A DNA stretch of 64,000 nucleotides, from positions 1 to 64,000 of IMG/VR virus record IMGVR_UViG_3300032607_000303. One strand, 5' to 3'. Below, one piece after another: positions 60,943 through 64,000 of this stretch. Under the pieces are notes generated by a model. The model searched no databases, was not told where the DNA came from, and was given only the letters and a program-made list of their open reading frames with translations. The translations under genes were made by a program, and so were the position numbers. The DNA comes from a virus. Position 1 is the first letter of the stretch. Each line of letters begins with the position of its first letter.

Positions 60943-61017
60943 GCCTTTATAGTTCAGTGATAGAATACGCCCTTTGTACGGGTGAGACGACAGTTTGATT
61001 CTAGTCTAGAGGCACCA
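60943..61017 (+). tRNA. tRNA-Thr(TGT), atypical or degenerate
   Basis: GCCTTTA/TAGAGGC-ACCA; loop TTTGTAC; no GG in the D-loop, bulged T-stem. Confidence 0.65.
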
Positions 61018-61100
61018 CCAATGTAAGCGAATCGGGTTGCAACCCTTGGGACACTGTGTTGTCTCTAGCTTACACCTATATTAATCCGCACAGGGATAAA

Positions 61101-61856
61101 ATGAAAATAGCAACAAAAGAAAGCGTAATCGCATCTATACTTAGGTTTGTAACAGAAAATAGTAGGTACCCAACTAAGACAGATTGTAGGGATACTGACT
61201 GGTTATACAGTGCGCAAACAAATCGGCGTGTAGTAGGTTCTGTGCAAGAGATGAATATACTCTCTGATTTTCTTCTTAGCAACCCACTACCAGATAACCC
61301 TAAAAGATTTTGCAAGCAATGTGGCAAGGAAATAGACAATAAAGCAAGGGTATTTTGTAGTAGGTCGTGCTCTGCGAAGTTCAATAATAATACAGAGAAA
61401 AAGATAAAGTCAACTCAGAAGATTGAAGTAATTGATAAAGTCCGTGTTGTAAAAGAAGTTGTTGACCTCGGAAACTGCGTACATTGCAGTAATAAATTGA
61501 CAGCTAGGAATACGGTATTTTGTTCTACTGCTTGTGCGTCAGATCACAGATTAGCACATAGTATTCAAAATTGGTTAAGCAGTGGTAAAGTCCATAATGG
61601 AAACCAAGCTATCCGCAGCTATTTAAAACTCTTAGTGGGGGATAGCTGCTCTGTTTGTGGTATCTTAGAACATAACGGTAAACCTATAACCTTTGAAGTT
61701 GACCACATCAGTGGCGACAGTACGGACGATAGATATGAAAATGTCTGTCTTATTTGTCCAAATTGCCACTCTCAAACAGACACCTACAAAGGTAGAAACA
61801 GAGGTAACGGAAGGCACTCAAGGGCGCAGCGTTATCGTGAAGGAAAGAGTTATTAA
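61101..61856 (+). CDS. HNH endonuclease with Zn-finger repeats
   Basis: Two CxxC/FCS..C repeats; EVDHISGD...N..LICPNCHSQT. Confidence 0.88.
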   Translation: MKIATKESVIASILRFVTENSRYPTKTDCRDTDWLYSAQTNRRVVGSVQEMNILSDFLLSNPLPDNPKRFCKQCGKEIDNKARVFCSRSCSAKFNNNTEKKIKSTQKIEVIDKVRVVKEVVDLGNCVHCSNKLTARNTVFCSTACASDHRLAHSIQNWLSSGKVHNGNQAIRSYLKLLVGDSCSVCGILEHNGKPITFEVDHISGDSTDDRYENVCLICPNCHSQTDTYKGRNRGNGRHSRAQRYREGKSY

Positions 61857-61860
61857 ATAG

Positions 61861-62155
61861 AAGTAAAGACCTCTCCCGACTCATTTCCACATGAATATCG
61901 GTGAAGTCTCTTTAGAGCCTTTACAGAACCTGCTCCCTAGTGTGAGTCAGCCTCTCCTCTGCGTCTAAGTTGTAGCAGGTTCTGTAAGTGTTTTAAAGAA
62001 TTTACATAACTTTGTATGGACTACACGTAAGTGTGTATGTCTGCAACGAAGGCTATGTATCTCTATTGTATGAATGTTATACAGTAGCCAAGAGGTGAGG
62101 CTCACGACATGGTGAGTAAGTTATCCAGCATGGAAGTGTGGCGTGGATACAGCTT
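61861..62155 (+). ncRNA. Candidate structured RNA between the HNH gene and tRNA-Ser
   Basis: 14-bp perfect stem 61921-61934/61974-61987; loop complementary to 62091-62102; further small hairpins. Confidence 0.45.
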
Positions 62156-62246
62156 GGAAAATTGGCTGAGTGGCTGAAGGCGTCGGTCTTGAAAACCGAA
62201 GAACGTTCATAGCGTTTCGTGAGTTCGACTCTCACATTTTCCTCCA
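62156..62246 (+). tRNA. tRNA-Ser(TGA)
   Basis: GGAAAAT/ATTTTCC-TCCA, loop CTTGAAA, long variable arm. Confidence 0.92.
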
Positions 62247-62312
62247 AGATTATTTTGTAATAGGCTCGACCATCCGAGAGGATGTGTCGGGCTGTAGTTT
62301 CTTTAGTAAGTA

Positions 62313-62396
62313 TTCTTAATAGAGTGCATTGGTTGTGTCCCTCCAAGGCTTCCTGTGCATTCTGTTAAGAAGATTTATTAACTTCCCTTGGAGGGA
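62313..62396 (+). promoter_or_regulatory. RBS-sequestering pseudoknot candidate
   Basis: 17-bp stem with 3 G.U pairs; loop TCCCTCCAAGG is the exact complement of CCTTGGAGGGA at the SD. Confidence 0.65.
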
Positions 62397-62401
62397 ATTG
62401 T

Positions 62402-63100
62402 ATGACAGAAGTAAAGGTAGGAATGAAATTCACCAAGTTAACCGTAGTTGCTCCAGCAGGTAAGAGTAAATGGTTATGTTCATGTGACTGCGGAAACGAG
62501 AAAGTACTCTGTTCATCAATGCTGACATCTAACCATAATAAAAGTTGTGGTTGCTCTGTAGATAGACATGGTATGCGTTACCATCGCGCTTACAAGAGTT
62601 GGCTCCACATGAAACAGCGTTGCACTAATCCAGAAAACCTAGATTACCCTAATTACGGTGGTCGTGGTATTACAGTACATGAAGATTTTGCTAAATCGTT
62701 TCCAGTATGGCTTGCAGCAATTGGTGAGCGACCAGAAGGCCGTTACAGCATCGGACGTATTGACAATAATCTTGGTTATACTTACGGAAATATTCGATGG
62801 GAAGATGATGAACAACAATCTCGTAACCATTGCAAATCCGTAACAAATAAGACTGGGATTGTTGGAGTTGTCTATCGAGAGCGAAACATAAATGGAGGAA
62901 TTTACTGCATTTGGGTAGCTCAATGGGCCAACGAAACTAATAAAAAGAAATCAAAAGACTTTAGTTGTAATAAGTATGGTTACGATGTAGCCAAGCAACT
63001 TGCTATTGATTATCGAAATAAAATGATGGTAGAGCTAAACATCCGAGGATTTGATTACGCAGAATCTCACGGTAGTGTAAAGGAGATTTTGAATGGCTAA
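62402..63100 (+). CDS. HNH-like homing endonuclease with AP2-like domain
   Basis: WLCSCDCG, MKQRC.N...YGGRGI, RIDNN.GY..GN.RW and NKTGIVGV. Confidence 0.88.
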   Translation: MTEVKVGMKFTKLTVVAPAGKSKWLCSCDCGNEKVLCSSMLTSNHNKSCGCSVDRHGMRYHRAYKSWLHMKQRCTNPENLDYPNYGGRGITVHEDFAKSFPVWLAAIGERPEGRYSIGRIDNNLGYTYGNIRWEDDEQQSRNHCKSVTNKTGIVGVVYRERNINGGIYCIWVAQWANETNKKKSKDFSCNKYGYDVAKQLAIDYRNKMMVELNIRGFDYAESHGSVKEILNG

Positions 63101-64000
63101 AGATATACGCTTGTCCTTTGGGCCAGCAAGTTTAAAACAGCAAATGGTCTTACAAGATATGGAGACTGATTTGCTGGTCGTTGGCGGAGGCAATGGCGGG
63201 GGCAAGAGCCACATGGCGTTAGTAAAGGCTCTGAAGTATGTACAAGACCCTAATGCTGTTGTGCTGATCGTTCGCCTCAGTTACCCGCTTCTCAAAAGTG
63301 CGGGTGGCTTAGTAAGTGAATCAAAGCATATTTACAGCCACTTCAAAGCCACTTGGAAAGAACAGAAACTTGAGTGGCATTTCCCTAACGGTGCCCTCAT
63401 TAAATTTTATGCAATGCCACAGGATTTGACACAACTTCAAGGCCAACAATACAGTAACATCATTGTGGATGAGGCAGCAGAGTTTACCCTTGCAGATATT
63501 CTTGCCCTACGTGCCCGCCTTCGGGCGGTTCGCTATAAGGGTAAGTTGAACATGATGGCGACCTGTAATCCGTCTAGGAGTAGCTGGTTATTTGACTTTG
63601 TTTCCTATTCACTTGATGAAGACGGTGTTCCACTAGCAGGTACAGAGGATATAACTAGGTGGTTTGTTATTTTGGCAGGAAAAATATTCTGGGGTAATTC
63701 TAGGGAAGATTTGTTTGAGCGTCATGGACAAGGGTATGTTCTTGGTGGTGACTTTAGGCCACTAAGTTTTCGTTTTATTCCTATGGATATCTACTCTAAC
63801 CCAATCCTTCTAAAGAATAATCCTGCCTACCTTGCAGACCTTCTAGCGCAGAGCCGAGTAAATCAGTTACGCTTTCTAAAAGGTAGCTGGACGGCAGTGA
63901 CTGAAGGTAATTCGTATATTCGTAGGGAGTGGTTCAATTTTGTATCTTTCCCACCCTCAGAGGTAACAAACAGAGGTCGTGGATGGGATACTGCTGCGTC
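63093..64000 (+). CDS. terL: Terminase large subunit (5' part; runs off the window)
   Basis: AAGGAG RBS; GGGNGGGKS Walker A, IVDEAAEF Walker B and ATCNP. Confidence 0.9.
   Translation, partial: MAKDIRLSFGPASLKQQMVLQDMETDLLVVGGGNGGGKSHMALVKALKYVQDPNAVVLIVRLSYPLLKSAGGLVSESKHIYSHFKATWKEQKLEWHFPNGALIKFYAMPQDLTQLQGQQYSNIIVDEAAEFTLADILALRARLRAVRYKGKLNMMATCNPSRSSWLFDFVSYSLDEDGVPLAGTEDITRWFVILAGKIFWGNSREDLFERHGQGYVLGGDFRPLSFRFIPMDIYSNPILLKNNPAYLADLLAQSRVNQLRFLKGSWTAVTEGNSYIRREWFNFVSFPPSEVTNRGRGWDTAA

Follow-up and report, generated by a model that had tools for sequence, protein, structure and literature searches.

The 64,000 nucleotides (nt) of viral DNA analysed here, hereafter called the window, are bases 1-64000 of the 80,845-base-pair (bp) IMG/VR virus record IMGVR_UViG_3300032607_000303, a record that carries terminal repeats. 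At the far end of the window the terminase gene terL is preceded on the + strand by a gene for a homing-endonuclease-like protein of 232 amino acids (aa). The leader of that gene holds the element that concerns us: a long hairpin whose apical loop is the reverse complement of the gene's own Shine-Dalgarno (SD) region. The initial annotation of this DNA had read the arrangement as a pseudoknot between loop and SD that represses the nuclease. The parts of the element and the two genes behind it are listed below; S1 denotes the upper stem of the hairpin and S2 the helix between loop (S2a) and SD region (S2b).

62303-62311, + strand: 5' strand of the lower stem, 9 bp, pairing with 62373-62381 (minimum free energy (MFE) folds)
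62313-62329, + strand: S1, 5' strand, TTCTTAATAGAGTGCAT (base-by-base reading, MFE folds, covariation)
62338-62348, + strand: S2a, the anti-SD segment in the apical loop, TCCCTCCAAGG = UCCCUCCAAGG (complementarity, duplex energy)
62355-62371, + strand: S1, 3' strand, GTGCATTCTGTTAAGAA (base-by-base reading, MFE folds, covariation)
62366-62382, + strand: conserved box, the 17-mer TAAGAAGATTTATTAAC (identical in the window and in the related leaders L004 and L047)
62373-62381, + strand: 3' strand of the lower stem, inside the conserved box (MFE folds)
62383-62397, + strand: alternative local 6-bp hairpin over the SD, UUCCCU/AGGGAA, 62383-62388/62392-62397 (MFE folds)
62386-62396, + strand: S2b, the SD region, CCTTGGAGGGA = CCUUGGAGGGA, 5 nt before the ATG (complementarity)
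62402-63100, + strand: homing-endonuclease-like gene, 232 aa, AP2 domain, phrog_374 type (Pfam, PHROGs)
63080-63085, + strand: terL's own SD, AAGGAG, 7 nt 5' of the terL ATG (sequence reading)
63093-64000, + strand: terL, 482 aa in the whole genome, continuing past the end of the window (Pfam Terminase_6N, E = 1.1e-15)

A long hairpin and its complement at the Shine-Dalgarno sequence

S1 consists of 17 contiguous base pairs, of which 14 are Watson-Crick and three are G.U or U.G, with no other mismatch, and it closes an apical loop of 25 nt (62330-62354). Within the loop, S2a (62338-62348) is the exact 11-nt reverse complement of S2b (62386-62396), and an inverted-repeat search returned the same pair independently at 100% complementarity. 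The SD itself, GGAGG, occupies 62390-62394, and the ATG 62402-62404. Base-by-base reading confirmed to the nucleotide the stem, its 25-nt loop, the 11-nt complement between loop and SD, and the start codon at 62402, all as the initial annotation had given them.

RNAfold adds the 9-bp lower stem across a 1x1 internal loop, giving a 26-bp hairpin. Folded over 106 nt the region has z = -4.6, and over 174 nt z = -5.8; it is far more stable than shuffled sequences, none of 200 folding as well. The S2a/S2b duplex has an energy of -22.1 kcal/mol, against a mean of -10.0 for shuffled loops, and a run of at least 11 nt against this SD region arose in just 3 of 5000 random 25-nt segments of the window. 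Inverted repeats of this length are not rare per se: the 64-kb window holds 16 inverted pairs of at least 11 nt within 80 nt, three of them exact. The case therefore depends on context and on conservation, and we take conservation with compensatory change in relatives as the decisive evidence against chance.

No known RNA family accounts for the element. Apart from tRNAs, no family of Rfam 15 came near its gathering score in the leader of the window or in a second leader searched (L264); the best scores inside the element were 16.3 bits for the window leader, from miRNA models with gathering scores of at least 85, and 15.3 bits for the L264 leader. The sX4 model reached 30.6 bits over the upstream tRNA-Ser, against a gathering score of 70.

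Conservation and compensatory change in related leaders

In all, 18 viral contigs were found to carry the element, in 13 distinct leaders of two architectures. Three leaders, that of the window included, have a long hairpin of 26-29 bp; the other ten have a 5-bp outer helix enclosing a 7-bp hairpin.

The two long-stem relatives, L004 and L047, were located by terL-based and motif-based scans of viral contigs. Their terL proteins are 90% (L004) and only 47% (L047) identical to that of the window. Both loci run from a terminator-like hairpin through the long hairpin and the 17-mer TAAGAAGATTTATTAAC, unchanged, to an SD, an endonuclease-like gene and terL. Their endonuclease-like gene is of the phrog_681, T5orf172/treble-clef type. 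The upper stems, 21 bp in L004 and 19 bp in L047, are wholly unlike that of the window in sequence and are still paired, and every non-Watson-Crick position is again G.U (5 of 21 in L004 and 4 of 19 in L047; 3 of 17 in the window). The lower stems of 6 bp (L004) and 10 bp (L047) form in other registers than that of the window, so that the hairpins total 17+9 (window), 21+6 (L004) and 19+10 (L047) bp.

In alignment A3, in which the L047 row was shifted by one column, 95.2% of S1 cells are paired and 6 of 21 pairs have changed on both sides. None of 500 shuffles scored as high for paired cells, double-changed cells, further pair types or covariation score; in the count of double-changed pairs one of the 500 did. 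Slid controls were 38-49% paired. A covariance model scored 100-114 bits on the + strand versus 15-24 bits on the - strand. The inference drawn in the initial annotation from the G.U-only mismatches, that the structure is formed by + strand RNA, is thus borne out by two further stems that share the feature and differ in sequence yet pair.

The loop-SD helix has changed in concert. L004 and L047 carry the loop segment CCUCCCAAGG and the SD region CCUUGGGAGG, where the window has (U)CCCUCCAAGG and CCUUGGAGGG(A). At the core, CCCUCC/GGAGGG in the window corresponds to CCUCCC/GGGAGG in the two relatives: two neighbouring pairs have been replaced, U-A by C-G and C-G by U-A, without loss of complementarity.

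Close variants of the window's element come from single contigs. A 278-nt contig from a lake-water run (X7) has nine differences over 62276-62416, six of which are itemised. Five of these six interconvert G.U and A-U or G-C pairs in the stems: G62306>A turns a G.U into an A-U pair in the lower stem, and the changes at 62358, 62359, 62360 and 62364 all keep their pair through G.U. The sixth disrupts the lowermost pair of the upper stem; loop segment, box and SD are untouched by all six. A 107-nt contig (X8) covers the element with four differences.

The short-stem leaders, ten distinct ones on 15 contigs, have eight different hairpin-stem sequences. Three of them (L069, L070 and L073) came from the terL scan, with terL proteins 52-53% identical to that of the window. 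A strong terminator-like hairpin is followed by the 5-bp outer helix GUGGC/GYCAC, a pyrimidine-rich internal loop and the 7-bp hairpin with its loop of 6-7 nt; then come UAGC, the core of the box, 1-2 nt, and a segment complementary to the loop that enters the SD. In alignment A6 the S1 of these leaders is 97.1% paired, and five of its seven pairs have changed on both sides. Five loop/target versions occur (CUGUACU/AGUACAG, CUACAC/GUGUAG, CCACAU/GUGUGG, CCGUAAU/AUUACGG and CUCUAC/GUAGAG), giving an S2 of 5-7 bp that overlaps the 5' end of the SD. S2 of the long-stem leaders is 10-11 bp and covers the whole SD.

Across all 13 leaders we counted seven distinct versions of loop and SD flank, each complementary only to its own partner. 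In a register-free analysis the longest Watson-Crick run of a loop measured 5-11 nt against its own downstream region but only 2-6 nt against those of other types. When six types were permuted, the identity arrangement alone, one of 720, reached the observed sum; the seventh type, CUCUAC/GUAGAG, differs from CUACAC/GUGUAG by two compensatory pairs. The distance from the end of S2b to the start codon is 5-11 nt in every leader. The two helices of an H-type pseudoknot, joining a hairpin loop to a downstream strand, are both present and each covaries. The pattern of substitution shows S1 and S2 to be selected RNA pairings on the + strand, with S2 involving the ribosome-binding region. The covariation check in related phages that the initial annotation had called for has come out in its favour, for S1 in A3 and A6 and for S2 through the double compensatory changes, and the seven complementary versions with the 1/720 permutation result support the loop-SD pseudoknot that it had put forward.

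The AU-rich box between S1 and S2b is conserved in another manner. The window, L004 and L047 have the 17-mer in common without a single change, in spite of the 47% identity of the L047 terL, and the partners of the 17-mer in the lower stem differ in register among these long-stem leaders. All leaders have its core, UAUUAAC or a near variant, at a distance of 1-4 nt from S2b on the 5' side, and in the ten short-stem ones this core is outside any stem. Such conservation exceeds what the predicted pairing would need, and it is the main unexplained feature of the element. The 17-mer is single-copy in the genome; with up to three mismatches one other site appears in the window, which is within chance, and TTTATTAAC occurs three times in 80.8 kb. 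In five related genomes the 10-mer of the box (up to one mismatch) was no more frequent than its reversed control. A multi-copy promoter motif was rejected on these grounds, the box being single-copy and its 10-mer unenriched in the five genomes.

Among cultured phages, DNA search with 62100-63300 gave matches to the tRNA-Ser only (23 records), and the L264 leader gave none. The 232-aa protein as query returned no locus among viral contigs. A search with covariance model R1, which was derived from the three long-stem leaders, detected no additional member in 46 other sources of about 480 kb in total, and two further viral contig scans produced no new leaders. A metagenome scan with the 17-mer box gave at least 120 stretches; among the matches listed, none had the loop or the SD. 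The contigs that encode the closest terL relatives (P0001 and P0003-P0008, 97-83% identical) lie outside the 13-leader set.

Endonuclease-like genes and the region upstream of terL

Every one of the 13 leaders precedes an endonuclease-like gene of phrog_374 or phrog_681 type, which is followed by terL. The phrog_374/AP2 type is found behind the leaders of the window, L265 and L275, and the phrog_681 type behind the other ten. The idea that leader type tracks endonuclease type was rejected, as both architectures occur with both types of gene.

Relatives that have no endonuclease gene (L084 = L269, L276 and L278) have no S1, no box and no loop/target pair. What they share with the leaders described above is limited to the terminator-like hairpin and the initial 21-22 nt of the short-stem form, after which the SD and ATG of terL follow at once. 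In L084 = L269 (4449-4560), L276 and L278, GTGGCGAACAGGGTAGCTCCCC is retained with the terL SD directly behind it, so that the left boundary of the inserted module falls immediately behind GTAGCTCCC. Since the endonuclease-free contigs, otherwise collinear in this leader, are without hairpin, box and pairing, the module comes and goes with the inserted gene. The same absence led us to reject S1, the box and S2 as parts of an ancestral terL leader.

In the window the order on the + strand is a 108-aa gene, a tRNA-Leu, a tRNA called by Rfam only, an HNH gene, about 300 nt of non-coding, RNA-like sequence, a tRNA-Ser, a GC-rich hairpin, the element, the 232-aa gene and terL. The features upstream of the element are:

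61056-61856, + strand: true HNH gene, upstream of the tRNA-Ser
62156-62246, + strand: tRNA-Ser, UGA anticodon (ARAGORN; Rfam tRNA, 56 bits)
62263-62293, + strand: GC-rich 13-bp hairpin followed by a U-rich stretch (MFE fold)

In position the GC-rich hairpin matches a terminator-like hairpin that stands ahead of the element in relatives. The terminator scan marked such sites at the corresponding spot in L264 (8908-8943) and L047 (5474-5502); in the window it called no site at 62263-62293. The tRNA-Ser directly adjoins the element in the window only, a position not kept in the relatives, and L004 and L047 have in its place a tRNA-Thr about 290 nt upstream of the element. The extra + strand tRNA lies at 60943-61014 (Rfam, 46.4 bits); ARAGORN made no call there.

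The same non-coding stretch contains a second long hairpin (61909-61999), with 26-nt arms that are 85% complementary and a 39-nt loop that includes a pyrimidine-rich block. L004 and L047 also have a long hairpin, right behind the tRNA-Thr, with a similar loop block and different stem sequences. The candidate long-range partner of the 61909-61999 loop in the window is an exact run of only 6 nt, and the best partner of its L047 counterpart is a 12-nt run with G.U pairs at a different relative position; a long-range pairing of this loop is not clearly conserved. A block GGTGAGGCTCAC...TGGTGAGTAAGT is common to the non-coding leaders (62094-62125 in the window, 5408-5435 in L047), and in the window the tRNA-Ser sits between this block and the element as if inserted into the leader. 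Two other open reading frames (ORFs), one on the minus strand (62077-62346) and one starting with TTG (62329-62463), overlap the tRNA or the hairpin, and both are without an SD.

The gene at 62402 had been annotated as an HNH gene, and this holds only in part. The protein matches phrog_374 (E = 8.8e-44), and the PHROGs families concerned are named 'HNH endonuclease'; Pfam, in contrast, finds AP2 (E = 1.3e-9) and no HNH domain in the 232-aa protein. It is 36% identical to the product of the gene behind the L265 leader. By eye we noted a GRIDNN...GNIRWE stretch, with the same GRIDN in the L265 protein, at what we take to be the place where HNH_3-type proteins hold their histidine-containing motif. 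The 232-aa protein may be a catalytically altered or DNA-binding-only member of its family.

The complete terL ORF corresponds to L002:1094-2542, and the nearest cultured terL, from Pseudomonas PAK_P1-like phages, is 37% identical. The terL ATG (63093) overlaps the 3' end of the 232-aa gene (63100) by 8 nt, and the initial annotation had put forward a coupling of terminase translation to that of the nuclease. The overlap stands, but terL has a strong SD of its own and L004 is without the overlap, which leaves the proposed coupling doubtful.

Elsewhere among the relatives, the space before terL (loci L062-L084) holds 0-16 tRNA genes, endonuclease-like genes, or a 109-aa gene abutting terL. In L003 (1-620; terL 81% identical) a phrog_953 endonuclease-like gene stands before terL, and the contig ends about 18 nt upstream of the start of that gene. 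The terL leader is thus a hot spot that accumulates tRNA genes and nuclease cassettes. The terL reading frame of L075 (3340-5862) is 840 aa long, and an 828-aa database relative, P0106, has PF05204 and PF14528 besides its terminase domains. These are presumably homing-endonuclease/LAGLIDADG families, and their presence would suggest an intein inside terL.

A putative brake on nuclease translation and its alternatives

We hold it to be somewhat probable that the two pairings form a cis-acting brake, in which a loop-SD pseudoknot of the H type in the 5' leader limits translation of the endonuclease-like gene. The S1 hairpin would present its apical loop, and the loop would pair with the downstream SD region to complete the pseudoknot. 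The ribosome-binding site would then be occluded and 30S binding hindered, and transcripts reading in from the upstream tRNA/leader region would translate the nuclease poorly. We infer both this repression and the mode of its relief. In the form that we prefer, the brake would be either a constitutive throttle or one bypassed in the manner of T4, by transcripts that start after the hairpin and are without the anti-SD loop; the box, between S1 and S2b, sits at the exact place that such a start would require.

Where the stem is long, the pseudoknot would exclude pairing of its lowermost 6-10 bp and vice versa, and a two-state equilibrium is possible. Loop lengths L1/L2/L3 would be 8/6/14 nt in the window, 4/0/16 in L004 and 4/0/20 in L047; since the 14-nt L3 of the window must span the 17-bp S1, its 9-bp lower stem has to open. 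Estimated energies for the pseudoknot and the nested fold are -37.7 and -39.7 kcal/mol (window), -46.2 and -44.5 (L004) and -40.4 and -43.1 (L047). In none of the three long-stem leaders do the two differ by more than 2-3 kcal/mol, which suggests two states of similar stability.

Several observations weigh against a pseudoknot brake. The pseudoknot energies contain a crude fixed penalty and are indicative only, and the MFE structure of the window from pseudoknot-blind folding is the 26-bp hairpin together with a weak local SD hairpin. In the short-stem leaders S2 covers just the first 1-2 nt of the SD and leaves most of it outside; a pseudoknot there would need the whole 6-7-nt loop paired, with an L1 of 0-1 nt. 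SD occlusion in these leaders is less certain. In the MAFFT register S2 is 66.7% paired, with three of six pairs changed on both sides. The MAFFT alignments (A5, A6) do not hold S2 in a single register and place four of ten rows one column off, so these counts understate the pairing, but the pairing in the shifted rows in turn depends on our custom register-free script. The leaders come from related freshwater viral contigs, several of them from a similarly numbered sample series, and are not phylogenetically independent. Bypass is without positive support: no sigma-70-like promoter was called in the leaders of the window, L264 and L047, and the box is single-copy. Of the sequencing runs listed for this stretch, 0 are on record as RNA. 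Finally, a pseudoknot beside an SD can also activate translation, as that of IncI-alpha repZ does in a process that needs translation of a leader peptide and an antisense RNA.

Other accounts of the element have to meet the same evidence. It is rather unlikely, in our estimate, that pseudoknot and box together are an operator or platform, with a protein on the box setting translation in the manner of T4 gp32, or with the pseudoknot acting positively as a standby site, enhancer or 5' stabiliser. Such a role would suit a box kept far beyond pairing needs, its 17-mer identical at 47% terL identity while the pairing partners vary in register, and a UAUUAAC core kept in short-stem leaders though outside their stems, as it would suit the position of most of the SD outside S2 in those leaders. 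The gene 32 operator, as described in PMC3014915, is likewise a pseudoknot with, behind it, an unstructured A+U-rich stretch overlapping the ribosome-binding site. However, an S2 of 10-11 bp over the whole SD in the long-stem leaders is hard to see as activating, and no candidate binding protein has emerged; autoregulation through one shared DNA/RNA-binding domain is unlikely, since the endonuclease types differ among leaders. The trigger proposed in the initial annotation, in which the SD is freed, and nuclease and terL are switched on, once RNase III cuts the long stem or the tRNA-Ser is processed, we consider improbable. Long-stem leaders do keep 26-29 bp despite complete turnover of their sequence. 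This is the size of an RNase III substrate, about two turns (at least 20 bp) of near-continuous double-stranded RNA, and tRNA and leader share a strand. But ten of the 13 leaders have only the 7-bp hairpin and 5-bp outer helix, so that long double-stranded RNA is no conserved part of the mechanism and cleavage cannot serve the whole family. Nor would the 11-bp loop-SD duplex (-22 kcal/mol) dissociate spontaneously after cleavage. For the tRNA, adjacency to the element in the window alone (L004 and L047 having their tRNA-Thr instead) does not favour a processing trigger, and terL has its own SD in any case.

We give little credence to a DNA-level element (a promoter, operator, or packaging or recognition site) as the cause of the conservation, with the RNA pairings incidental. 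The box is single-copy, AT-rich, perfectly conserved and just upstream of packaging genes, and a terminator-like hairpin 40-70 nt upstream in relatives makes a new transcription start plausible. Yet the stem mismatches, all G.U on the + strand, would read as A.C in DNA or on the opposite strand; two separate helices covary; no sigma-70-like site was called; the motif is unenriched in the five related genomes against the reversed control; and endonuclease-free relatives without the box still have terL right behind the terminator. A DNA-level role could hold for the box alone, leaving S1 and S2 unaffected. As for a mere coincidence of the hairpin with an unrelated 11-nt inverted repeat, the 16 such repeats within 80 nt in the window, three exact, speak for it; set against the compensatory changes in 13 leaders, the 3 of 5000 random segments and the 1 of 720 permutations, it is extremely improbable.

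The proposed pseudoknot brake has close counterparts in T-even phages. According to two papers (PMC2988022, PMC3014915), structures that sequester the ribosome-binding site silence translation of the homing endonuclease genes I-TevI, I-TevII, I-TevIII and segB, and of mobE in Aeromonas phage Aeh1; late transcripts escape this silencing by starting inside the inhibitory structure (PMC2988022). The T-even hairpins and our leaders have in common a cis-acting RNA that pairs with the SD of a phage gene for a homing endonuclease, or here a homing-endonuclease-like protein, set among essential genes in one transcription unit, and presumably the purpose of limiting or delaying nuclease synthesis. By prediction and covariation, the SD is here too paired in a stable cis RNA structure. 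It does not lie inside the stem of a simple nested hairpin as in the T-even leaders; its partner is the apical loop of an upstream hairpin, crossing S1 in pseudoknot topology. Where the T-even structures contain a mapped late promoter, our leaders have a conserved AU-rich box and no called sigma-70-like promoter, and the viruses are unrelated, uncultivated freshwater viruses.

The gene 32 operator of T4, T2 and RB69 shows a different likeness, a pseudoknot followed by an unstructured AU-rich stretch up to the ribosome-binding site (PMC3014915). There the pseudoknot lies about 67 nt upstream, does not include the SD and nucleates cooperative gp32 binding, whereas here the SD region is itself one strand of the predicted pseudoknot. 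Loop-tail pairing next to or over the ribosome-binding site also controls initiation in the IncI-alpha/IncB repZ/repA leaders and in the E. coli rpsO (S15) leader, whose pseudoknot is stabilised by S15; unlike the element described here, repZ and rpsO are not known to have a link to homing endonucleases or phage packaging genes. In a limited literature search, with subscription journals outside its scope, none of the papers listed concerned by title a pseudoknot over a homing-endonuclease SD. We regard the element as a candidate new RNA motif family and as a new structural variant of ribosome-binding-site sequestration of the T-even type. The motif is compact (about 80-110 nt), supported by covariation, absent from Rfam, and open to modelling, searching and simple reporters.

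Homing endonuclease genes need to be expressed without harm to the essential genes that they invade. To our knowledge, the T-even hairpin over the ribosome-binding site, with its late-promoter bypass, is the only worked-out solution. Unrelated, uncultivated freshwater phages of 80-90 kb would reach the same end by another RNA topology, in two architectures with a common AU-rich box, and the module is present exactly when an endonuclease gene precedes terL. More tentatively, we suggest the possibility that hairpin, box and SD flank make up a modular silencer, one that moves along with free-standing homing-endonuclease cassettes before terL or is rebuilt around each of them, the box being a protein site or late start that flips a near-isoenergetic switch between pseudoknot and hairpin. 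If this is true, nuclease synthesis would be timed relative to DNA packaging with terL left undisturbed, and the leaders would represent a class of phage cis-regulatory RNA that is new, widespread and confined to mobile nuclease genes.

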